Source of the DNA: Catajapyx aquilonaris
Taxonomy: Eukaryota
DNA length: 64,000 nucleotides
Reading direction: 5' to 3'
Assembly (NCBI GenBank): GCA_000934665.2
Contig: KZ538001.1
Span: 124,001-188,000 of the forward strand
The stretch's first letter is position 1, and every line of letters starts with the position of its first letter. Under the pieces are notes generated by a model. The model was not told where the DNA came from and ran no database searches. It saw only the letters and a list, made by a program, of their open reading frames with translations. This document shows positions 28,701-64,000 of the stretch, in pieces. The translations under genes and the position numbers were made by a program.

Positions 28701-29510
28701 CAATTTATGACTCTTTAGGAAAAAAAAAGCTGTCCGAGCCTGAATTTATAGGCAAACGTGCTCTCGGAATAACAAGCGAGAAAAACATGTAATTAGGGGA
28801 TTTAGATGCGAGCCCTCATTTGGGAAGACGCGATTCATCAACCGGGGCCCCCCAGTTTTGCAATGCAAGCGCAGTAGAGGTGGGCGGTGACACTAGGTCA
28901 CTTTCATTGTTGCATCACACTGAGAAAATTTGAAGTCGAAAAGGAGGTCGTGTCCGAGCAAAAAGGCTAGAGGGTTGACTTGGCTGGCTGGCTGGCTGGC
29001 TCTCTGTCTGTGTCCGTTGGGGCGCAGTTGGTATCGGGCCCATTCGTTCCCTGGCGCCGCTAGTCTGAAGGCTAGCGACATTATCTAAGCCGGTGTGCAA
29101 AGTTCTCTCCGCCGAGCCGCTCATTTATTTGGATGGAATGAACTCGGGCGCTGGTGTATCGGAGGGGCCCTTCTTCGGCATTCCAAGCGCGAGCTAGCTG
29201 CCTGCCTGCCTGGCTTGCCTTACTTTCTTCCCTATCTCCGCCAAGCCTTCGGGAAACCAACACTGGCCCTGCAGCTCCACTTCATCTGTCTTCCAGCTCA
29301 CCCATTTATTTCTCTTCCTTCCTTCCGTCCTGCCTTTCATCCTTCCCTCTGTACTCGGAACAGATTAGTTGCGGGCTCAGTTGGAAAGTCGGCTTCCAAA
29401 ACCCGTGGGACTGCTGGCCTTGAGATGAACCAACAATACTTGGGACTCGTAGGATTATTGCAATTTGAGAGTATTAAAACTGGACTGAATATCTTTTGTA
29501 TTGCTTTCAG

Positions 29511-29690
29511 GTTACGAGCGAGACATTCCTGGCTACCCACGCTACACCATGCTGGGCGACCCAACCAACGGAGAGCACCACTTGCGCATCTTGAATGTGA
29601 GCCTGAAGGACGATGGCGAATATCAGTGTCAAGTGGGACCGGCACGATACAACAAGGCTATTCGCGCCGACGCCCGCCTCTTCGTCTTGG
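29511..29690 (+). CDS. sns: nephrin/sns exon: C-terminal half of Ig1 (GYERDIPGYPRY...DDGEYQCQVGP...ARLFVL)
   Basis: ttgctttcAG acceptor, GTAAGT donor, phase 1/1, Ig F-strand motif D-x-G-x-Y-x-C. Confidence 0.92.
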
Positions 29691-32600
29691 GTAAGTGGCC
29701 GCCTGCCTATCTTTGGCACTTGTAATCGGCCAGCAGCCAACTTACGAGTGTTCAGACTTCAGCCTGGTTGCTAGAGGCTGTAGTCTGGTCCTGAGTGAAT
29801 GCACCAGTGCGGGCATGAGGAACATGCCTATGGACTGGCATGAATAAGCTCCATCGTTTGCTCCTCCTTTGGAGATGAAAGGCACTTTCAACTTAATTCG
29901 CTTCTTTAAGTTTGTTTTCCGGCTGAGACGGGGGGGACTGCAATCCTTTTCCGACGTGGAAGCACCTCGATTACTTCTCCTCCTCCTTGTGAAAATCCGC
30001 TGATCCAACATCTCCCACCACTCATCTTCAGGGAAGCTGTCAAATACTTTTCCCACCACCCCAGGGCACTGCTTTTCCTCCTCCGCAACCAGCTTCGACC
30101 ATGACCGGGATAAAGGCCTCGCTATGCTTCTCCCAAAAGGAGGAGCAAAGGGTGGGACCGCCTAGATGGAGTCTAGATGCCTTTCAATATTTCCACGATG
30201 AACTATAATACTCTAGGTGCGGGGATCATCCCGCGTCAGGTCGAAAACGCGGACCAGAAAAAGGTGATATTGTCGCTGTGTCATTACCAAACGTTTTGAG
30301 GTTTGCGATCTGATCCGGTGTGATTTTATTAACATACAACACCTGCCAAATTATTTGCCGAATTGCATTGCTAATACAATTTATTGGCATTAGTTTTGGT
30401 TCGATTCCCCAAATAATTGACGCGTTACCAATATGCCTGTCACAACGTGGCCTCTTGTTTACCTATTGTGGCACCGGCGGTGTTTTCCTTTCGTAGTGCA
30501 GTTATTAATTTTATACTGGAATATGGTGCAAAAAATTGTGGGCAATGTGTGTTTTCCGGATGTATAATTTACCTCCAAATAGAGGCAGCCTGTTCTAGTC
30601 CGCTCTAGTCACTAAACACGGTCAAAACATATAAAATATCGACCGTTTTATGACAAGGATAGTTGGTTACCGATAGCAGACACGATACAGCCAGGCGTTG
30701 ACTTCTTTTTAGGTCACGTAAGATACATAGTAATGTCATGCGAAACTGTATATAAAATATTAGGATTAGTAACAAAGCAGAACGTGCGCGAATATCAGTT
30801 TTTTCTATACCGCCCGAATGAAAATTTGAGGAGCTGCTTTTGCAAATTGCAGTGTTCATGTCCAATAGCAGTACTCGAGCCTCTATTTTGAAGCACAAGT
30901 CAGGGTTGGATTCTAAACTTGATATAATTACTCACGCATCTTGTAGAAAGAAGCCAGCAAAAGCCCAACCGTAAAGCCACAGCGACTTGATAACAGCGTT
31001 GCTTTTATGTCATAGGACAGTTGAAGCAGCATTCCTCGAAATCCTGTAAAAGTGGAGGAAAACTGAGCTCTCTCTCTCTCTCTCTCTCAGTTCCTCGCAG
31101 TACGGGCTCCAGCACTTGGAAATTCACGATTGTTCCTTCCTCCCGTATCAACGCCGTGAATATGGAAACTTGAGATAAAGCCTCAGCTAAGAAGTTGGCA
31201 AGTCTGTAAAAGGTGTAATTAGGAGCGCCCACTTGTACCCGTCACACCTTGCCATCTTCAGACCACATAAGGATTTCCGTTTCCTATATAGACTAGTCGA
31301 GAATCACCCTCTTAAAGGGCGCCTGGGAACCTAACTAGGGAGTCTGCACTATGCAATTTATGTTCAGACTAGAAAATTTGGACCTCTTTTTTGGATATTT
31401 CGCCTGATTTTCACGAATGGGTACCGGTCCGGGAAAATGCACAGCGTCCACTTTCGGTACCAGACAGGTGCCTCAAGGTTGCCTGAGCAGGCGCCGGGCT
31501 TATCCAGGGGATGCCAGACCAGGCGTGGTTACCAGGGTCTCCAAAAGTTTGCCACGTCGACAACAAAGTACTAAGCGGAAAACTCCTTCGCCCGCTTTAA
31601 ATATTCCAGCGGCTTAAGAGTTGGCCGCGTTTCAACAAGAAGCCTGGAGAACATATCAAATTTCTTCACCAAACTTGTCATTTAGGCGGCTACCGTAATG
31701 GTGTTCTTACTTCGGGGTGTGTCGGCCTCATCAAGTGCACTTCCGCATCTGGATGGTCGATACACTCTGGGGGGAAAAGGGCCAGATTCCAGAGAAGCAG
31801 ATTAATCAAGTTGACTCACTACTTCCTCTCCAGGACGCACACTTCTTGCATGGAACAAAAGTCTGGCAAAAAGCGAACATGCACTCCCAGGCGTTTGCTG
31901 CCTCCTCTTTTTTTCAGTTCTTTTCATCAGCCTGCGGAAGAAGAGGCAAATGAGGTCGAGGGTGGGGTATGAAACTGAGTTAGCCGGGGGTCGTGATTCA
32001 TTAGGGGCGCCTGGCTCTTTTCGATTCAGGCAGAAGAGAGAGCCAGGCTTGCAAACAGGTCTTGGTGGACTGTTTGCCCCCCCGTTCGGTACTGATGGGC
32101 TCAGGACAACCGCTGGTACTCCTGTTGACCAAATCAGGTCTCGTTTGGCCCTTTTATTTGCTGTGCTTCTTGGTCCATGTTCAGCCCGCATTTATTTCCA
32201 AGATAGTTTGGAATAAGAAATCCGGCACCATTGTTGTTTTTATATGTGTTTTTTTGTGTTAAGAGCCATCCGGACAAACTGCTGTAAGGTTGGGAGTCGA
32301 GACTAATAGGGGACGCGTGCTGTTTCTGGCGGCAAGTACGTCCTTTTCCTTGCTTCACCAATAAAACTGTCAGGCCGGGCTCTTGTGCTCACTCGACTTC
32401 CGCGACAAACTTGATACAATTGATATTTCAAGTGCCGGAACAGAAATCCCTACGACAGAGCTGGCTCTAGTCACATGGTATTGTGGTTCGGCTGACAGGA
32501 GGATTTTTTATTAGTAGAGAGCAGATGATAATATGTATAACGGCGGTGACCGCACATGTGGTACATTCTTATGAAAAATAAAAATGATCTGCAGCCTCGT

Positions 32601-44600: not shown

Positions 44601-44904
44601 GGACGTTTAGTGCGCTCATGCACAATTGATGCTGCCGCCTGAATGGAAGGGCAGTGGTGTTGTCCGAGAAGAGTGCTGCTGGGGTTGTTGTCTGTTTTTA
44701 TTCTTTGCTCTTGTGAACACCTCAGTCAGCCGGGAAGCATTTGTTTGCTGGCGTCCTTCACAAGTCTCGTGGAAGAAAGCCATGTCAATTGACCAGCTGT
44801 GTACACTGTGGGTCCTCTTTATGCTTGGGATGGGCATGTTCATCTTGATGTTCTTTCCCCTCTCATAATGCCAAAAGCAACGTATACACTGCGATGCCGT
44901 CAGC

Positions 44905-44961
<57 letters not shown>

Positions 44962-47900
44962 GATAGAATCACGATGGTTATTTTATCGTTGATAGGGAAT
45001 AATTGATCTACTGGCGCAACTCTCGTGCCCATCTGCAGATCCCCAAATGGTGTGCAGGCCTGCTCGTGATGTAAAAGCTGGATTTGTTGAATGGGTTGCC
45101 ATTATGAAGGAGCTCACCAATCATAGGATTTTACCAGAACAGTTTTGCAGCTCAGTGGTGGAAAAACCCATCCACAAACCCATCTTTCTTCAGTCGTCTG
45201 GCTCTGTGTTCACCTGTAATGTTAATCACTTCTTTCACTCCAAATCCAACCGCAATACCAAGTCGATATTGTTCAGATGTTAAGTTGGGAATTAAATCTG
45301 AGCAGGTCGCCTATGGTAGGCTACTGTTAAGCCTATTGAGAGAGTGCAATAAGTAGCCTACACGTAGTAAATAGAAAAATACTGTGCTCCCACTGTGCCA
45401 AGTAATTCCCGGAGATTAGGTTCTATTCCATGAAAGTGCAGCAAAAATTCTTTTCCTTGCAGTACCACCTTCATCAATAGAGATTATGGATCATGCTCGG
45501 GGATCACAGATAAGCATCAAAGAATCTGAGCAACTAGAACTTCAGTGTCGTGCAAGAAACGCCAAGCCACCAGCCACCATCATGTGGTACCGCAACAATG
45601 TGGAACTCAAACTAGGTGAGTATTACCATTCTCAAGGAACACTAACAGTTTTCTAACATACTGTGCGTGCTCCTTGCAGACACACGAGAAGACCGAACTA
45701 CAGAACACGAGGGTATGGAGGACGGGAAACGAGTGACCAAGTATGACTCTCACAGCAAAATCACTTTCCAACCCACTGCCAGTGATGATGGGTCACTCTA
45801 TGCATGTGAAGCACGCCATCCTGCACTGTCTATCCCTGACAGAGTTGCCATCCAGCTCAGTGTAAAACGTGAGTAACACTCTATGTGACAATAATTACTA
45901 TGTACAGAATGGTGGGATTTATTTTCTGTTTCTCTACAGATCCCCCAGGTCCACCTCACATTGAAGGTTACACAGAAGATGAAGTAGTACGAGTGGGGCT
46001 TCCCATCTCCCTAGTATGCATTTCTCGAGGAGGTAACCCATTGGCAGAACTGGTGTGGTTCAAAAACGATGTCAAAATCGACTCCTCCTACACCACTTCT
46101 ATTCGGGAATCTCGCAATGACTACACGTTCACAGTGGATACCAGTGACAACAATGCACGCTACCGATGTGAAGCTTCCAACCCCATGAGTCGTGCACCAA
46201 TGAAAGCTGAAGTGAAACTGACTGTACAATGTAAGTAACTATGCCTGAATAAGAACTTGCACTTTTCAAAGGGTATGATTTAAAATATACATGTCGGTTC
46301 ACAGTCGCTCCAAAAGAGATCAGAATCAGTGGCCCCACTGAAGCAAAAGTAGGAGATACAGTAGCCTTGCACTGCAACACATCCAACAGTAATCCTCCAG
46401 CAGTTATCACGTGGTTTAAGGATGGTCTTCCAGTACGCCCATACACCAATCGCACTGTTGCTGTTGCTGATGGTGGGTGGATAACGTCCTCCAACCTTAC
46501 TGTGGAGATTCAAGAAGATGACCGCAACTTGACCATCACCTGCCAGGCAGTGAACCAGTACTTGGGGGAATCCAAAGTTGCCGGGCATATGATTAAAATA
46601 ATTCGTAAGTAACTCCAAATTATATTCTTACAAGAACAGGTGCATAGTTAGGAAAGAGTAGGCCTTACTGGCATGCGGGAAGCAGCAGGGTGAGTGGTGG
46701 CTGGGGGCAGCTTGGCTGTGTCGCAAAGGCAAGGATTGATTTTTTGGATTTTGGAAGGGGTATGGTGTACCAACCTAACCTAACCAAGCCTAACCTTCCT
46801 GCCTTGTGGATACAGAGCTATCTTCAGCCATACACACCTATCTTCAGCAGATACATGCCTATCCTTGATCCTTGCCTTTGCGACACAGCCCGCTGCCCCC
46901 ACAACTACTACCCTCCCGCATGCCAGTAAGGCCAACTCTATCCCATAGTTATTGCCAGCATATACATGAAATCCACTAAGTCCAAAAAATCAGTTTTCTG
47001 ATAGTCAAAGATTTGACCTTGTACTTGTTTACATGCTAGTGAAGGCAGAAAATCCCGGTGTTGCTGGCTAATTATTAATCTTAGGACTAAAATCCAAATG
47101 GACTTCACCAGATGACAGAGCTTTAAAAATGCTACCTAGTGATGTAAATAACTCAAAACCACCGAAATTGGCCTTTTTGGATTTCACTTGCTTGCTTAAT
47201 ATGATTATATATCATACTCTCCACCCCACCGGGTATTCCATAATGCAACTTGCTCACAGCACCTTCCCCCTTGCTATGTCATCTGGTCACTTACTCACTT
47301 GAGGTGGCTGAGGCCAATGCATAACAGATTTCCATCTTTCCTAAGATACCTCCTCTTAGGATTTTCAAAGGAAAACCTCTCCCAGACTCAAACCACAATA
47401 GTGCACATCAGGCCTGGATGATGTGCTTTTGTCTGCAACAAAAATTAGCACCAAACACACTGGCATAAACTCTCATTGGTTTCTGGTACTTGAATTTCTG
47501 GTATGAAATGACAGAATCAAATTCAGTGTGAATAAATTAGATTACACAGAAATGGCAGTCAATCATACATAGTTGAGTTATACAGGGTGTAAGTCAGGGC
47601 TATTCAACTGGCGGACTGCGACGCTATACAGGACTGTTTGAAATAGCATGAAAAATTACAAATTCATGATTTTTTTGGAAAAAGTGCTACCAATTTCATC
47701 AAATACCCATTCAAATCGCCCACATTCAGCTAAGCTCGTGTGACCTTGAACCCCCCCCCCCCCCCCCCANNNNNNNNNNNNNNNNNNNNNNNNNNNNNNN
47801 NNNNNNNNNNNNNNNNNNNNNNNNNNNNNNNNNNNNNNNNNNNNNNNNNNNNNNNNNNNNNNNNNNNNNNNNNNNNNNNNNNNNNNNNNNNNNNNNNNNN

Positions 47901-50900
47901 NNNNNNNNNNNNNNNNNNNNNNNNNNNNNNNNNNNNNNNNNNNNNNNNNNNNNNNNNNNNNNNNNNNGGGGGGGGTCTGGACCTTCAATGGCCCAGGAAA
48001 GGGAAATACTGGACCTTGTCATAAACTAGTTGAATAGCCCTGGTGTAAGTTATATGAATTCATCTGCAGGAAAAAAAGTAGGCACCAATTTATTGATGTG
48101 TGCAGGAGGAAACTGGTTTTGAGGGATCCAGTTGAATGCTTCTTGCGATTAGTACAGTATGTATACTATTGGGTTCAAATACTTTTGGCCACTTTATCAT
48201 GGTCTTGACGCAACCCTTCGCACAGACTCCACATTAAGGAGGTGTGTGTGTGTGTGAAGGGTTGCTTCAAGACCAGGATAAAGTGGCCAAATGTATTTGA
48301 ACCTGATAGTGCATATCATAAGTAGGTGATACCATAACTACTTACAGAACCTCCTGGTCCACCCATGGTATATGGTTTTGGATCCAACCTGGTTGCTGGT
48401 CGCTTGCAGCGCATCACATGCATTGCTGCTGGTGGCAATCCAGTTGCCAGCCTTGCATGGTTCAAAGGCAACAAAAAGGTAATTGTAGATATTATTGATT
48501 AATTGCAACAATTGGATTAACAATTTTTGTACCCACAGCTCAACTCTGTCTACAGTACAAATGGCAACTTGGCTTCATCAGAATTAGCTATTGTTGCCAA
48601 TATGTCAGACAATGGAGCTGAATATCGATGTGAAGCAACCAACAAGGCAACAAAGTCACCACTCACCAAAACTGTCACTCTAAGCGTGCTATGTAAGTCC
48701 CATGAAGGGTGCATAAAATATATTCCTGCATATTACAAGTTGTTCTGACATTTTGTGATGTTTTTCATTTTTTAGTCCCTCCGGCAATGGTAAAGATTCG
48801 CAAACGCCCTCGCAAGTTGAAAGAAGGAGAGAAGGCATGGCTAATATGTGAATCAAGTTCAAGCAATCCAGCAGCACGCTTGACCTGGTGGCATGATGGA
48901 CTACCACTTCAGGGTCACAACAATGGCTCTCGGGATGGTGTGTATGGAGGCCAACAAACTGTAAACACACTTGAATTGGATGTGACAGCAGAGTTGGATG
49001 GTGCTGTATACACCTGCCAAGCTACCAATGAAGCCCTGCGGCAGAGTGTACATGATGCAATTGCTCTGGAAGTTCTCTGTAAGTATATGTGTAAGCATGC
49101 CATTCCATAATACAGTATTTGAATTTGCACCTCTTCCTGTAGTTAAGCCGCAGTTCTTGGAGGCACCTTCAGCAAAGAGAGACATAACTGAAGGAGAGTC
49201 AGCAGTCATCAACCTGGAAGCACGTGCAAATCCATCTGAAATATCTTACACGTGGACTCAGGATGGGACACCCATTCCCAGTAGTGCAGAAGCTGGGTCA
49301 GACCGGCATATAATTGCTTCTGGTCCACTTCTGAATGTGACAAGCGTGCGCAGAGAAGACGCTGGCACCTACATATGTGAAGCTGTCAATGCAGAGGGTT
49401 CATCCGTTACTACTGTTCAGCTCAATGTGCAGTGTAAGTTCGAGTACTCTTAAAATAAGGTTATTGCATGACTGTTGTGCAATGATAATATGTTACAGAT
49501 CCACCACGTATAACATCATTGGAGCGCTGGGTTGTGGTTGGTGTAGGCGAAGATGTCCACATAGAATGTCAAATGGATGCTAACCCTCTGGAGGAAGGGA
49601 TGGTGCGATGGGAGCGTGAAGGCTTTGACATAGCAGCCCGCACACGCCGATCCTATAAGCATCAAAGAGCATATCTGACAGTAGCAGAAGTGCAGCATGA
49701 GGACACTGGCCCTTTTGATTGCATCATTAATAATGGAATTGGTGAAGAAGCTCGAGGCACTGTGGTACTCATCGTAAAACGTAAGTCATCAAGTCTGTAT
49801 GTGAAATCCAACGTAATTCTATTGTATTGGTATTCACAGAGAAACCTCAAATTGATACCTCACCTCAAATGGCCAAGGCAGCCAGCGACCAGGGAGAAAC
49901 AGCTCGTTTGTCATGTCGAGCAAAAGGTTCACCCAACATCACTTTTGCCTGGTCGAGGGAAGGTGCTACCATTGGAACCCAGATGACTGAGAAGTATGAA
50001 GTTCAAGTGCAACAGGTATATACACATTTCAGCAACATTTTTATACCCTGCTTGTACTTGGATTGCATGGCATTTTATGATCACAATCACAACAAAATCA
50101 TATACAATTACAGGTGGACTTTATAACTTGGGAATCAACACTGTTGGTCAAAACAGTTCGCTCAGTGGATTACGGTTACTATGAGTGTGTGGCTCATAAT
50201 GAAATGGGCTTTGGTACATCTCGTGTTCTTCTGAATGTGACATCACGTCCAGACCCTCCATTCTTTGTCAAAGTACTAAATGTGAGCCATGATGCTGTGA
50301 GATTGTCTTGGACCCCTGGTTTTGATGGTGGCTTGCAGCAGTCCTTCAGAGTGCGCTTCCGTGAAGAAGGAGCAAGTGGCTACCGATATGCAGATGTGCA
50401 ACCACCAAATGCCACCAGTTATGTTGTTGGGGGACTTAGTCCAGCAACACAGTACTCATTCCATGTTATGGCTCTGAATGGAATAGGGGAGGGCAACTAC
50501 ACCAGAGAAATAGTGAAAGCAACCACCTCCAGTGAGTATTCTCAATAAACTTGCATGGCTGCTTAATATAATTCTTCTTTTGATGCATGATTATAATAGC
50601 AGAAACCAACTTATTGCTTCTCATGGGATAAGGTGACACACTAACTGCATGGGTAACGGTTGACATTTCTTCTTAGGTGAGGCCCCTCCTACAGCTACCT
50701 CCACTTCTGATGTAGACTATCAGCCTGGCCAGATACCCAAGCTCCTAATCATAACTATCACCATAGTGGGGACTGCCCTTCTTGTGCTCAATGTAGTCTT
50801 GATTGCCTTCTTCGTGCGCAAGCGCTCCAAGAAACGCATGACAGGTGAGTGGACAAACATTTATGTTGTTTTTTTTGCCCTCCTGGACGTGTAGGTGAGG

Positions 50901-52412
50901 TACCTCTGGGTGACCGAGAGAGGCGGATGTCAGAAGCAATGGGGAACAAGGGGGAGATTCCCAGAATTGTCATAATTTCGGTCTCAGTTGTGGGCTCCTT
51001 CTTGTTAATCCTGAATGTGATCCTAGTCTGCTGCTTCATCCGACGGAAGAAGAGGAAGGCTGAGGGTAGGACAGAATGACCATTGTATCCCTAGTTTTAA
51101 GTGTTTGGGGTAGTAATGCACCTTGTTTAGGAGGGAATCATCAATAACCAGATATCATTTTTGCAGCGGCAAGTGACCAGGGTAGCAGCAAATCAGCCAC
51201 CATGGAAATGTATGCCCCAAGCAGCTACAATGAGACGGTGACAGGCGAAACACTCAGCTCTATTTCTGAGAAGAGTGAAAGCTACTCCAACAATGGCAGC
51301 AATGAGGATTACATAGTCAGTAATGTTGAAGTCTCTTTGTACATGCAATGTTGGATCCTTGCTGTTTTTTTTTGAAGTGACAAATGATTCAGTCATGTGA
51401 ATGGCAGAAAGGCGGTCCCATGGTGTAACGGTAGCACTCTGGGCTTCCTAGTCCAGCAGTCCGAGTTCGAGTCTCGGTGGGGTTTGCCATCCATGTGTGA
51501 TAGATTGGTGTTTCCTATGTAGCCTAACAGAGAAAATGGGGTGAGGGAGGCAGCAGGTATTACAACATCTGGAAATGTCCTGCATGCTTTTGAAGAAATT
51601 AAAAAGCATGTAATTATTTGTTTCAGTTGCTACTCTGAAATTGAAAGTGTACTCCCATTACAGGATGATGGAACAAAGCCAGCTGCAGCCAGCACTTACC
51701 TGATTGACCAGATGGAACCTCCAGTGCAATACCCATACCATCCGACAGATCCTTCATCATCACGTCAAAATACTCTCACCAGACACAAGGCCAACAACAT
51801 GAATGTGGAGGATGACAGCTATGCTGATGCCCTCCGACGAAATGCCTACAACCAAACTTTGGGTAATGTTTTTGCAATACTGTGGCAAAACTAGTTGGAG
51901 CAACAAATATCAATCATATCACTTTCAATATGGGGTAAAATTGTTCATATTTGGGTTATGATAATATTTCAATGTATTTCTTTCTAGGAGAAAAAGTGAC
52001 ATATGGCAAGAGCACCACACCCAGACCGTCCAGTCGTGCTGCTGCCAGTCCTGATACCTACTACAACATTGCTCCAGACTCCCGTTATGTGCCGTACCCA
52101 CCTCCTGGATTTGGTCCTCCTGTGGGCAATGGCTCCATCCACCACCACCATCACCACCAAAACATCCCACCCACCAACGGGACCCTTCCTCGCAACAGTG
52201 GCAGCAACTCAGGGGGCCAGCCCGCCCAGAATGGACCTGTTGTGGTAGTGGGCTCTCCACCTCCCAGTGTCCGGTTGGGGGGATCCAGCTCTTCTCCTGT
52301 GCGGACAGCCGTTCAGGTACCACCGCTGCTGTCCACCTTCAACCCCAACCCCACCCCCAGCCCCACTAACATGGTGGAGGCAGGCTACGAAAACGAAGGT
52401 CACCTTGTGTGA
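29511..52412 (+). CDS. sns: Nephrin-family IgSF cell-adhesion receptor (sticks-and-stones/hibris/SYG-2/NPHS1-like), multi-exon, 5'-partial
   Basis: Exons joined at GT-AG sites keep one frame: 3809 nt with TM exon A, plus 1 nt from an upstream exon. Architecture is 9 Ig + FN3 + TM. Cytoplasmic SKSATMEMYAPSSYNETVTGETLSS and C-terminal GHLV match what I recall of Sns/nephrin. sns versus hibris orthology was not tested by phylogeny. Confidence 0.93.
44905..44960. repeat. (TTA)n microsatellite
   Basis: Seen directly. Confidence 0.95.
45463..45615 (+). CDS. sns: nephrin/sns exon: Ig2 N-half (VPPSSIEI...LQCRARNAKPPATIMWYRNNVELKL)
   Basis: ttttccttgcAG acceptor, GTGAGT donor; translated by hand because it is absent from the ORF track. 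Confidence 0.93.
45680..45868 (+). CDS. sns: nephrin/sns exon: Ig2 C-half (DTREDR...DDGSLYACEARHPAL...LSVK)
   Basis: ccttgcAG acceptor, GTGAGT donor; within ORF 45667..45876. Confidence 0.93.
45940..46230 (+). CDS. sns: nephrin/sns exon: Ig3 (HPPGPPHIEGY...CISRGGNPLAELVW...DNNARYRCEASN...LTVQ)
   Basis: ctctacAG acceptor, GTAAGT donor; within ORF 45885..46238. Confidence 0.95.
46305..46604 (+). CDS. sns: nephrin/sns exon: Ig4 (FAPKEIRISGP...CNTSNSNPPAVITW...TCQAVN...IKII)
   Basis: ttcacAG acceptor, GTAAGT donor; overlaps ORF 46367..46612. Confidence 0.94.
46651..46943. mobile_element. MITE with long GG-terminated TIRs and an 8-bp TSD (Mutator-, Merlin- or hAT-like; superfamily uncertain)
   Basis: TIRs ggaaagagtaggccttactggcatgcggga / tcccgcatgccagtaaggccaactctatcc; TSD catagtta at 46643-46650 and 46944-46951; internal CCTAA repeats. 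Confidence 0.85.
47595..48042. mobile_element. hAT (Charlie-like) non-autonomous element spanning an assembly gap
   Basis: TIRs cagggctattcaact / agttgaatagccctg; 8-bp TSD gtgtaagt (central TA) at 47587-47594 and 48043-48050. Confidence 0.85.
47770..47967. other. Assembly gap (198 N)
   Basis: Run of N flanked by poly-C on the left and poly-G on the right. Confidence 0.99.
48164..48311. mobile_element. Palindromic Tc1-like MITE
   Basis: About 55-nt arms actattgggttcaaatacttttggccactttatcatggtcttgacgcaacccttc / gaagggttgcttcaagaccaggataaagtggccaaatgtatttgaacctgatagt. Confidence 0.75.
48348..48478 (+). CDS. sns: nephrin/sns exon: Ig5 N-half (QPPGPPMVYG...ITCIAAGGNPVASLAWFKGNKK)
   Basis: cttacAG acceptor, AAG|GTAATT donor; translated by hand. 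Confidence 0.93.
48539..48692 (+). CDS. sns: nephrin/sns exon: Ig5 C-half (LNSVYST...DNGAEYRCEATN...LSVL)
   Basis: cccacAG acceptor, GTAAGT donor; within ORF 48527..48748. Confidence 0.94.
48776..49078 (+). CDS. sns: nephrin/sns exon: Ig6 (FPPAMVKI...CESSSSNPAARLTWW...DGAVYTCQATN...LEVL)
   Basis: tttttAG acceptor, GTAAGT donor; within ORF 48709..49110. Confidence 0.95.
49143..49433 (+). CDS. sns: nephrin/sns exon: Ig7, the 'spacer'-type domain lacking the first canonical Cys (FKPQF...NLEARANP...DAGTYICEAVN...LNVQ)
   Basis: cttcctgtAG acceptor, GTAAGT donor; within ORF 48998..49453. Confidence 0.94.
49499..49780 (+). CDS. sns: nephrin/sns exon: Ig8 (YPPRIT...IECQMDANP...DTGPFDCIINNGIG...LIVK)
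   Basis: gttacAG acceptor, GTAAGT donor; overlaps ORF 49519..49986. Confidence 0.94.
49840..50015 (+). CDS. sns: nephrin/sns exon: Ig9 N-half (QKPQIDTSPQMAKAAS...CRAKGSPNITFAW...QVQQ)
   Basis: ttcacAG acceptor, CAG|GTATAT donor; within ORF 49827..50126. Confidence 0.93.
50114..50531 (+). CDS. sns: nephrin/sns exon: Ig9 C-half plus fibronectin type III domain (DYGYYECVAHN...WTPGFDGG...LSPATQY...ATTS)
   Basis: ttacAG acceptor, GTGAGT donor; ORF 50114..50548; FN3 hallmarks W-x-P-G-F-D-G-G and L-x-P-x-T-x-Y. Confidence 0.95.
50677..50844 (+). CDS. sns: Alternative transmembrane exon A (SEAPPTATSTSDVDYQPGQIPKLLIITITIVGTALLVLNVVLIAFFVRKRSKKRMT)
   Basis: CACTAAC branch site at 50639-50645, tttcttcttAG acceptor, CAG|GTGAGT donor; 168 nt, phase 1/1; hydrophobic helix followed by a basic stop-transfer cluster; missed by the ORF track. 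Confidence 0.9.
50895..51065 (+). CDS. sns: Alternative transmembrane exon B (SEVPLGDRERRMSEAMGNKGEIPRIVIISVSVVGSFLLILNVILVCCFIRRKKRKAE)
   Basis: T-rich tract then gtgtAG acceptor, AGG|GTAGGA donor; 171 nt, phase 1/1; clear paralogue of exon A; within ORF 50849..51079. Confidence 0.88.
51167..51315 (+). CDS. sns: nephrin/sns cytoplasmic exon 1 (AASDQGSSKSATMEMYAPSSYNETVTGETLSSISEKSESYSNNGSNEDYI)
   Basis: tttttgcAG acceptor; the GTCAGT donor was chosen because it keeps frame with the next exon. Confidence 0.88.
51414..51485 (+). pseudogene. tRNA-Gln-derived pseudogene or SINE head inside an intron
   Basis: ggtcccatggtgtaacggtagcactctgg...tccagcagtccgagttcgagtctcggtggg follows eukaryotic tRNA-Gln. 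A and B boxes are present, but the anticodon loop is 8 nt (cttcctag) and the acceptor stem has three G-T pairs. Confidence 0.75.
51664..51862 (+). CDS. sns: nephrin/sns cytoplasmic exon 2 (DDGTKPAAASTYLIDQ...SYADALRRNAYNQTL)
   Basis: ccattacAG acceptor, GTAATG donor; within ORF 51541..51894. Confidence 0.88.
51988..52412 (+). CDS. sns: nephrin/sns terminal coding exon (GEKVTYG...YYNIAP...HHHHHH...YENEGHLV*)
   Basis: tttctttctAG acceptor; within ORF 51951..52412; ends in the PDZ-type motif GHLV. Confidence 0.93.
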
Positions 52413-59275: not shown

Positions 59276-59314
59276 TAATAATAAGAAGAAGATAATAATA
59301 ATAAGAAGAAGAAG

Positions 59315-59373
<59 letters not shown>

Positions 59374-59701
59374 CCTGGGTAAGTGCTTTCATCCCCGGTG
59401 GGGGTATATCACACGGAACCTTTATTGTACTATTATACATTGGAACCTACTCATTGAAACGCCTGGGCCCATGGGCAGGATGACAGGAGGGGATGTGCAA
59501 GGTGCAGTGCATCTGACGCTGTGGCCATTTTTAGTGAACTCCCCCGAGTGGTTTAGTCTGTGGAAATACCACCCGAGACGAAGCCAGAGGTGACCCTGAA
59601 CTCTGCACGAGATGAAGGGGGTGTCCCCGGGTTGGGATCGAACCCGGGACCTTAACATCCGTGGGCGCATACGTTACCGCAGCACCACTCCGCCTCCCCC
59701 T
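59276..59701 (-). mobile_element. tRNA-derived SINE of a different family with a long (TTA)n tail
   Basis: Minus-strand head with B box ggttcgatccc near 59635-59645; the tail reads as (TAA)n on + up to about 59372; candidate TSD tgacctattgagtaa / tggcctattgaataa (13/15). Confidence 0.8.
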
Positions 59702-62360: not shown

Positions 62361-63085
62361 CACTCTACAAGTCCTCGTACACTACGCCGTAAGCCCGACT
62401 TAAGTCCTGCCGGACTTGCATAAGTCCGGGGATGAAAGTCCGGCCAGATTTACTGTTTCAAAAACGTTCTGGAAAGGCCGGGAAAGGCTGAGAGACGAGT
62501 GGCGGGTATGTCACTTGATGACTCTCTTGATGATAAGCCTACCAGATGGCGCAGTCAAAAATATATACATAATTATAACTATTATATAATTATATTATAT
62601 AAATTTGGTTGAGATTAGTTTCGCCCGCCCCTTCGGGTTGGCTCCACTGACGCTTCGGTGGAGTCGCCTGGCGGGAGCGTCGGGGAAGTTGGGGGAAGGG
62701 GGAGGGAGAGGAAGACGGAGGAAGAAGAGAGCGAGCGAGAAGGAGGTTGCTTGCTGGAGTTGTGTGTGTAGGAGGAAGCAGGAAGGGAAAGGTGGCAACC
62801 GACACTGAAGGAAAATAAAACGTGAGTTACTTGAGTCTTGCTGTCTTATTTGAAGACAAGGTACCGCACAGAGACATTTTTTGTGAAACTATACTTTGTC
62901 ACCGATATTGGTGCCTTAGACCATATATACCAGTAGACGCTCCCCTCCCGTTTACGAGCAAGCGCAAAAGTGAAACCACCCACTCTGAGGGGGGATCACG
63001 TGACTTAGGGCAAAAGGGAGGCGGGAAGGCGAAATTAACATGGCGCCTTATGGGGATTCCGACTATCTTTGCGCCGTCACTGTCA

Positions 63086-63439
63086 GGCGCCTATTGGGAC
63101 TAAAAATATGCAATGGGTACCAAATGATAGCTCCGCCCATGCCCCGTCTCATGCCGTACATCTTCATCCGAGAGGTTGAGCGGGGAAGGACATAAAAAAT
63201 CCTACACTGTGTCATTGTTTCTCGCCGGAAGTGCAGTTTGTGTCACTACATCACTCAAACAACCACATTAAAATGTTCCAAATTTTAATATGCTGTGCAG
63301 ACAATCTTCCTCTGCATATTTCACCAACTCGAGGTTGCTTTAATTATCCGAAAATAAAAAGGTGAGCATATAAGTGATATCGGGACTTAGGGCAGCTTCA
63401 GTTAGGTCTGATTGATCAAAGTTCGCGCAAAACCTATAC

Positions 63440-63519
<80 letters not shown>

Positions 63520-63577
63520 TAATAGTAATAGCAGCAGCAGCAATAGTAGCAGTAATAATAATAATCATAATTGTGCC

Positions 63578-63650
<73 letters not shown>

Positions 63651-64000
63651 GGTTTTGCACAGACTTTGATCAATCAGTACCTAACTGAAGCTGCCCTGAG
63701 TTCCGATATCACCTATATGCTCACTTTTTTATTTTCGAATAATTAAATCAACCTCGAGTTGGTGAAATATTCAGAGGAAGATTGTCTGTACAACATATTA
63801 AAATTTTGAACATTTTAATGTGGTTGTTTGAGTGATGTAGTGACACAAACTGCACTTCCGGCGAGAAACAATGACACAGTGTAGGATTTTTTATGTCCTT
63901 CCCCGCTCAACCTCTCGGATGGAGATGCACGGCATGAGACGGGGCATGAGTGGAGCTATCATGTGGTACCCATTGCATATTTTTAGTCCCAATAGGCGCC
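63086..64000. repeat. Large high-identity inverted repeat with opposed (TAA)n/(TTA)n tracts at the centre; runs off the window end
   Basis: 63086-63438 is the reverse complement of 63648-64000 with scattered mismatches. Confidence 0.92.

Follow-up and report, generated by a model that had tools for sequence, protein, structure and literature searches.

The window analysed here, a stretch of 64,000 nucleotides (nt) of the Catajapyx aquilonaris genome (assembly GCA_000934665.2, contig KZ538001.1, positions 124,001 to 188,000), holds the 3' two-thirds of an adhesion-receptor gene of the nephrin/Sticks and stones (Sns) type. Between the exon for its fibronectin type III (FN3) domain and those for its cytoplasmic tail lie two adjacent exons, referred to as TMa and TMb, each of which encodes a complete transmembrane (TM) segment. 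An earlier note on this DNA had proposed that the two are alternatives, as in Dscam1.

A nephrin/Sns-type gene with two transmembrane exons

In tblastn alignments, the gene follows a Daphnia nephrin-like protein (P0182) colinearly from residue 72 to residue 1200, over an ectodomain of nine immunoglobulin (Ig) domains and FN3, and the exon translations match the Ig and fn3 families of Pfam. PMC10084454 gives the architecture of nephrin as nine Ig domains and one FNIII domain. The closest named proteins, taken from the best rows of the homologue searches, are nephrin, nephrin-like, syg-2-like and sticks and stones. Overall identity to the listed relatives is about 35-40%, none of them being close, and the best-matching segments are of branchiopod origin: against Daphnia, tblastn gives 58% identity for FN3, 65% for TMa and 70% for the tail exon. 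A summed tblastn ranking against the relatives was inflated by cross-matches among the Ig repeats and was left unused. Domain order, nearest names and tail motif place the gene in the nephrin/Sns/SYG-2 family of immunoglobulin superfamily (IgSF) receptors, a family characterised by binding of Kirre/Neph partners via Ig1. Its features within the window, all on the plus strand, are as follows.

29510..29713 (+): exon region of Ig domain 1, borders approximate (tblastn to P0182 residues 72-137, 57% identity)
Between the Ig1 and Ig2 exons (+): intron of 15.7 kb
45450..50015 (+): exons for Ig2 to Ig9, the last in its first part (colinear tblastn to P0182 and P0297; Pfam Ig)
50114..50531 (+): exon for the end of Ig9 and FN3, 418 nt, donor GTGAGT (Pfam fn3, E 4.4e-14; contig joint 50531>50677)
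50532..50676 (+): intron before TMa, 145 nt (contig joint; CTAAC-type branch motif 32 nt from the acceptor)
50677..50844 (+): TMa exon, a-type, 168 nt, phase 1/1 (translation, spliced contig, profile, tree)
50845..50894 (+): a-b spacer, 50 nt, GT..AG (sequence, motif scan)
50895..51065 (+): TMb exon, b-type, 171 nt, phase 1/1 (translation, profile; 67% identity to the one TM exon in P0003, see below)
51066..51166 (+): intron from TMb to the first cytoplasmic exon, 101 nt (sequence; acceptor at 51167 used in a contig)
51167..51315 (+): first cytoplasmic exon, with a motif conserved among arthropod nephrins (contig joints)
51664..51862 (+): second cytoplasmic exon (contig joints 51315>51664 and, with the cut at +1, 51861>51987)
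51988..52412 (+): last coding exon, stop at 52410-52412 (spliced contig reaching 52427; open reading frame (ORF) 51939..52412)

The Ig2-Ig9 part spans 45450 to about 50113 and contains three joints seen in spliced contigs (48692>48776, 49078>49143 and 49433>49499). An assembly gap, a run of N at about 47.75-47.98 kb, falls within the long intron that separates the exons of Ig4 and Ig5, and appears as X-runs in all six frames. For the cytoplasmic exon at 51167-51315, identity is 70-76% with the nephrin-like proteins of Daphnia and Artemia and 80-89% with eight metagenome loci.

Both TM exons have AG and GT at their borders and lengths that are multiples of 3. They are entered and left in phase 1, the phase of entry following from the 418-nt length of the exon at 50114-50531. 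The frames from 50679 and 50897 stay open for 55 and 56 residues without a stop. TMa codes for a Ser/Thr/Pro-rich stalk followed by a TM helix and a basic cluster; TMb codes for a charged stalk, again followed by a helix and a basic cluster, and stalks of this b-type carry a conserved acidic-Pro-basic motif just before the helix. Each exon supplies one hydrophobic stretch of about 25 residues and then the basic cluster, which corresponds to single-pass type I topology in either isoform. The helices and first tail residues differ between the a and b forms, while the ectodomain and the rest of the tail are shared. In a single BLASTP comparison with composition-based statistics, TMa and TMb share 17 identities (40%) and 34 positives over 43 positions (E 2e-14). 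In the DNA alignment 78 of 174 columns agree, and the exon duplication is therefore old. Adjacent, similar in length, equal in phase and homologous, the two exons have the layout expected of a mutually exclusive cluster. Re-reading of coordinates, borders, phases and translations thus agrees with the earlier description of two intact phase-1/1 exons of 168 and 171 nt, each with stalk, helix and basic cluster and closely alignable with the other.

RNA evidence for this species comes from one public run (X1) of 32 M letters, of unrecorded kind and tissue, in which about half of the sampled words of 50150-51330 are found. Five of its contigs align to the window, all at least 99% alike, with GT..AG joints, and therefore derive from spliced RNA. 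One of them, 1010 nt long and identical to the window, joins 50531>50677, 50844>51167, 51315>51664 and 51861>51987 (the second of these came out as 50841>51164 with the cut at +3). TMa is included in this transcript and TMb is skipped inside a 322-nt intron. Constitutive co-inclusion of both exons is not the form observed, the contig running from TMa straight into the tail exon. Of the junctions that the earlier note had listed for counting, the two of the TMa form (50531>50677 and 50844>51167) were thus found; those of the TMb form (50531>50895 and 51065>51167) had no instance in this one small run, and 50844>50895, the joint between the two exons, was not seen either. TMb is presumably used in this species as well. 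A TMa query against longer proteins gave 218 word-sharing candidates, none with E <= 0.01, in a word-limited search that does not imply absence, and the protein collections searched, for TMa within the same limit, yielded no a/b isoform model for C. aquilonaris.

Orthologous a and b classes in related arthropods

When TMb was compared with longer proteins, one of nine candidates matched (P0003, E 1.6e-12, over 96% of TMb). P0003 is a 527-residue transcript-derived protein from a 2.5-kb assembled contig of another arthropod and consists of FN3, a lone b-type TM segment and the tail, its three C-terminal residues being common to the window protein. Its TM segment is 67% identical to TMb and 51% identical to TMa, and its FN3 domain is 45% identical to that of the window. 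Few parts of the protein are therefore as well conserved as the b-type exon.

A HMMER search with P0003 returned 11,630 proteins at E <= 0.001, of which the best 150 were examined. Another search, word-indexed and started from the FN3-TM-tail region of a lobster relative, returned 251 proteins at E <= 1e-5, of which the best 120 were examined. A hydropathy scan revealed two tandem membrane segments in many of the proteins returned. A tree was built over 59 columns from 21 first and 21 second segments (20 tandem models and the window), labelled by position only. It parts firsts from seconds with a single label change (SH-aLRT 80; 0 of 500 shuffles as low), window TMa grouping with the firsts and TMb with the seconds; finer branching is unresolved at 59 columns. 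Profile hidden Markov models (HMMs) were then made from firsts and seconds with the window left out. TMa scores 66.9 bits on the a-HMM versus 40.1 on the b-HMM, and TMb 60.3 bits on the b-HMM versus 39.0 on the a-HMM. Classification of the best 120 of 251 proteins with these HMMs gave the following counts.

All, 120 proteins: a only 47, b only 49, a+b 24 (20 of these 24 form the HMM training set)
Named pancrustacean, 97 proteins: a only 44, b only 29, a+b 24
Named chelicerate and myriapod, 12 proteins: a only 0, b only 12 (2 of the 12 with small margins), a+b 0

Both classes occur among branchiopods, in an ostracod, among malacostracans and in many orders of insects, with sns of Drosophila included. 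Among thrips-like transcript-derived proteins, P0028 is a-type and P0220 and P0304 are b-type. Lophotrochozoan nephrins (Lymnaea, Owenia, Phoronopsis, Terebratalia and Saccostrea) have one segment with similar scores on both HMMs. This distribution dates the duplication to the last ancestor shared by branchiopods, ostracods, malacostracans and insects, or earlier, and the b-type looks closer to the ancestral form. Malacostracans carry two nephrin-like genes on different contigs, each with an a/b pair (in decapods P0029/P0177 for gene 1 and P0040/P0179 for gene 2), and the exon duplication therefore predates this gene duplication.

In 12 species-genes, isoform models with identical FN3 and tail differ only in carrying the a or the b segment. 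These were taken from 9 of 10 clusters examined closely and one further cluster, with segments classified by HMM and junctions read.

Penaeus vannamei: a in X2; b in X1
Penaeus japonicus: a in X2; b in X1
Macrobrachium rosenbergii: a in X2; b in X1
Artemia franciscana: a in X4, X5; b in X3; both in X1, X2
Frankliniella occidentalis: a in X3, X4, X6; b in X1, X2, X5
Maniola jurtina: a in X3; b in X1, X2, X4, X5
Tribolium castaneum: a in X2; b in X3, X4
Tenebrio molitor: a in X2; b in X1, X3, X4, X5
Hyalella azteca: a in X1, X2; b in X3
Oratosquilla oratoria: a in X4, X6; b in X1-X3; neither in X5
Panulirus ornatus (second gene): a in X1, X2, X4, X5; b in X3
Drosophila ananassae: a in X3; b in X4; both in X2

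Only b was found in the tenth of the closely examined clusters, that of Schistocerca (5 members), and in the clusters of scorpion (11 members) and spider (2 members). With respect to the use of one exon per transcript, the window's own species thus offers an a-only contig, and its relatives offer a-only and b-only models in these 12 species-genes, a+b models (24 among the best 120 of 251) and one model with neither. The last, Oratosquilla oratoria isoform X5 (P0352), runs from FN3 directly into the tail; such a protein would be secreted and still carry the "cytoplasmic" tail. Dipteran tandem a+b models include P0226, P0227, P0253 and P0313-P0316, with a-only and b-only models (D. ananassae, D. 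sechellia) alongside. If real, the a+b forms of Diptera and Artemia would have two helices and an unusual topology, and on these models exclusivity may be relaxed in both groups. Many other a+b models are ab initio predictions.

The two classes are conserved to similar degrees. Mean pairwise identity, taken over 91 pairs from 14 species sets, is 39.6% among a-type segments and 37.5% among b-type ones, and the window exons are 43.5% (TMa) and 39.7% (TMb) identical to the others. The eight metagenome loci mentioned above came from scanning contigs with the first tail exon. In six of them, an a-type and then a b-type exon precede the tail exon, each with an open frame and GT/AG borders; in the other two, which extend only about 1.1 kb upstream, neither TM exon was seen. 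Non-synonymous (dN) and synonymous (dS) divergence was estimated for two pairs of these loci.

L006/L007 (Daphnia-like), b exon: dN 0.042, dS 1.39, dN/dS 0.030
L006/L007, a exon (24 codons): dN 0, dS 0.76, dN/dS 0
L002/L004, b exon: dN 0.284, dS 2.57 (saturated), dN/dS 0.11
L002/L004, a exon: dN 0.10, dS not estimable (saturated), no ratio

In the three of four comparisons with estimable dS the ratio is 0-0.11, which indicates that both exon types are under purifying selection in the related loci. Neutral evolution of one exon, an outcome that the earlier note had named in advance as fatal to its proposal, was not found among the relatives, a result that concerns their loci and not the window exons themselves.

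The spacer and the choice between the exons

The 50-nt spacer between TMa and TMb is shorter than any other intron that could be placed in the gene, in agreement with the earlier note. The next shortest, of 59 nt (49781-49839) and 60 nt (48479-48538), were found again and are placed by frame-keeping GT..AG pairs, not by RNA, and six other introns backed by spliced contigs measure 64-348 nt. The claim that branch adenosines lie near the donor likewise holds. YTNAY is matched only once in the spacer; its branch A is 19 nt away from the TMa donor, 31 nt away from the TMb acceptor and ahead of a long pyrimidine run, and the other A's of the spacer occupy positions 4-15, 43 and 49. A retained spacer would end the frame at an in-frame TAG (50892-50894), where ORF 50664..50894 stops. 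Spacer lengths at the genomic loci read are given below, with borders in the six metagenome loci inferred from homology and GT/AG.

Window: 50 nt
L002: 50 nt
L004: 44 nt
L008: 38 nt
L003: 20 nt
L006 (Daphnia-like): 492 nt
L007 (Daphnia-like): 722 nt

Spacers are thus short (20-50 nt) in five of seven genomic loci including the window, or in four of the six related ones. The five short spacers (20, 38, 44, 50 and 50 nt) are all 2 modulo 3 in length, and retention of any of them shifts the frame. This common remainder, at n=5 related loci, may reflect shared ancestry or chance. To our knowledge, the 20-nt gap of L003 is below the size limit of any animal intron. At this locus, exon a must therefore contain the branch site that serves the b acceptor.

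Exons 2 and 3 of alpha-tropomyosin are the classical mutually exclusive pair governed by steric hindrance. Spacers of 20-50 nt and a branch distance of 19 nt fit an exclusion of this kind, in which binding of U1 at the TMa donor and of U2 at the branch site of TMb would exclude each other; the mechanism is suggested by the motif match and the spacer lengths. The crowding of donor and branch site put forward in the earlier note is supported by the window motif and by the short spacers of four of six relatives, but not by the two Daphnia-like loci, whose long spacers mean that steric exclusion cannot be the universal mechanism. Competing RNA pairings were considered as a selector and rejected: four inverted-repeat pairs occur in 50500-51200, the best a perfect 9 nt and a 20-nt pair at 70%, which is at chance level (arithmetically, about one perfect 9-mer pair is expected per 700 nt).

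We hypothesize, with a probability of roughly 0.8, that the membrane module of this nephrin/Sns gene is encoded twice by tandem paralogous exons, that one of them is chosen per transcript and that joining of TMa to TMb is hindered. The exon would have been duplicated before the radiation of Pancrustacea and both copies retained since, and the products would be FN3>TMa>tail or FN3>TMb>tail, with the same ectodomain and tail in both. The a-only contig, the b-only P0003, the 12 isoform pairs, the signs of selection and the spacers all speak for the Dscam-like alternative TM switch that the earlier note proposed. Several observations weigh against it. No contig enters TMb among the five from the one 32 M-letter run of unrecorded tissue. 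RefSeq contains a+b models in Artemia (X1, X2; P0181/P0295) and several Diptera, and the isoform pairs are themselves database predictions, RefSeq alternative variants resting on transcript alignments. In two of the four divergence comparisons dS is near or beyond saturation. On the side of the mechanism, two predicted introns of this gene exceed the spacer by only 9-10 nt, and length alone is no proof of unspliceability; the branch site is placed by a motif match and has no mapping behind it; two Daphnia-like loci have spacers of 492 and 722 nt; and the exon borders of the metagenome loci come from homology and GT/AG, not from RNA.

That the sole transcript contig over the region skips TMb would also be expected if TMb were a decaying relic here and TMa the only exon ever spliced in, and the TMb donor, GTAGGA, is indeed weaker than the gene's other donors. 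We regard decay as improbable. TMb is open over all of its 171 nt and has an AG acceptor behind a strong pyrimidine run. The b-HMM, built from other species only, gives it 60.3 bits compared with 53-56 for functional b exons from species that have b-only isoforms (Penaeus 53.0, Hyalella 53.9, Artemia 55.6), and its 67% identity to the myriapod-like b exon of P0003 stands against 45% for FN3.

Both TM exons begin with GTGAGG (50677-50682 and 50895-50900), as do no others of the 14 tabulated exons, and ligation of the FN3 exon, or of TMa, to them therefore recreates a donor-like site. Recursive splicing could in principle select the exon in this way, the recreated donor allowing an exon just added to be removed again. 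A GTGAG start in only 2 of 14 exons, the FN3 exon's own donor, which is one position off the recreated site, and the GTGAGG start of the L003 b exon are in keeping with such a route. It is nevertheless very improbable. Among the relatives, the motif occurs at one of six b exons (L003 only) and is absent from the one a-exon start read, also in L003, so the conservation of a donor-like motif that marks recursive splice sites is lacking. The motif is accounted for by Ser-Glu start codons, which are common to many relatives at the protein level, and the contig retains TMa from its first base.

Least credible is that TMb is a cassette exon co-included with TMa, giving a two-helix form with the tail outward or the second helix uninserted: the frame would survive, both exons being multiples of 3, and 24 relatives (among the best 120 of 251) are modelled as a+b, including RefSeq Artemia and Drosophila species, but many of these models stem from ab initio annotation, the spliced contig joins TMa directly to the tail exon, the only branch-like motif of the 50-nt spacer lies 19 nt from the donor and the L003 spacer falls below the animal intron limit.

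Significance and comparison with known systems

Nephrin and Sns are central to myoblast fusion, the filtration diaphragm of nephrocytes and podocytes, and neural wiring, and their constructs and mutants are usually handled as one protein. If two versions of the anchor have been kept since before the crustacean-insect split, it is probable that information, for example on sorting, cis-partners, shedding or lipid environment, resides in the anchor itself, and rescue or tagging with a single isoform may then miss part of the biology. By analogy with Dscam1, the two anchors might differ in membrane sub-domain or partner choice, in shedding, or in sorting among muscle, nephrocyte and neural contexts; lipid environment is conceivable as a further difference. 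With natural cases of sub-minimal spacers (down to 20 nt) beside long-spacer relatives, the locus offers a comparative system for how exclusivity is enforced. For the window alone the result is a point of annotation: gene models should take either exon, not both.

A wider reading, which we find doubtful as a whole and put forward tentatively, would extend the switch to the nephrin/Sns anchor of all Pancrustacea, Drosophila included, over more than 500 million years. It would have up to three states (a, b and none, the last being secreted), enforced in many lineages by an unspliceable spacer of 20-50 nt. The anchors would route the protein to the fusion site, the nephrocyte slit diaphragm or neuronal contacts, a layer absent from published work.

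Elsewhere in the window, long trinucleotide microsatellites flank the gene at about 44870-45000, 59290-59390 and 63400-63690 (translating as poly-Asn, poly-Ile or poly-Tyr). Near-identical ORF translations lie at 63063-63365 (-) and 63748-63999 (+), on either side of the microsatellite at 63.4-63.7 kb. This opposite-strand pair points to an inverted repeat some 250-300 nt long, which may be an element of the foldback type.

A literature search, with incomplete coverage of the likeliest sources, turned up no account of alternative TM exons for nephrin, Sns or Hibris, and the parts of PMC9000958, PMC10084454 and PMC9880076 available to us do not mention Sns isoforms. In RefSeq isoform models, the pair is already present in many species, Drosophila included, and as modelled it is a family-wide trait, not one specific to the window. 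The novelty claimed in the earlier note stands insofar as no paper describing a TM switch in the nephrin family was found; it was overstated for a pair that is family-wide and already modelled by RefSeq.

The closest known counterparts are the RefSeq models named nephrin, nephrin-like or sticks and stones, which contain the same orthologous a/b pair with identical FN3 and tail. They are protein models (P. vannamei X1/X2, T. castaneum X2/X3, Frankliniella X1/X3, D. ananassae X3/X4), to which the window adds the genomic layout and the 50-nt spacer. Vertebrate nephrin has a splice form without the TM exon. There, too, splicing acts on the membrane anchor, as in the Oratosquilla X5 model, but it does so by skipping a single TM exon. 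The likeness to alpha-tropomyosin exons 2 and 3 is that a downstream branch point lies too near an upstream donor; for the nephrin pair the mechanism is proposed from motif and spacers, and two Daphnia-like loci have long spacers.

The TM variants of Dscam1 sort to dendrites versus axons; we know of no targeting difference for nephrin or Sns. In PMC9880076 and PMC2655722, Dscam1 is described as having two alternative transmembrane domains, encoded by exons 17.1 and 17.2. Dscam1 is likewise an arthropod IgSF adhesion receptor with two exons for the TM and juxtamembrane region, but belongs to another gene family. Arthropod N-cadherin has mutually exclusive TM exons, ME-18a and 18b, that are kept across arthropods; according to PMC2655722, the two confer graded adhesion without a difference in localisation, and Apis has a single exon. 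N-cadherin thus shares with nephrin a conserved pair of TM exons, although it is a cadherin and not an IgSF protein, and whereas Apis has one N-cadherin exon, the nephrin pair is present in all major pancrustacean groups sampled. As in these arthropod TM switches, the alternative exons of nephrin encode the TM and juxtamembrane region, and both have been kept across lineages.

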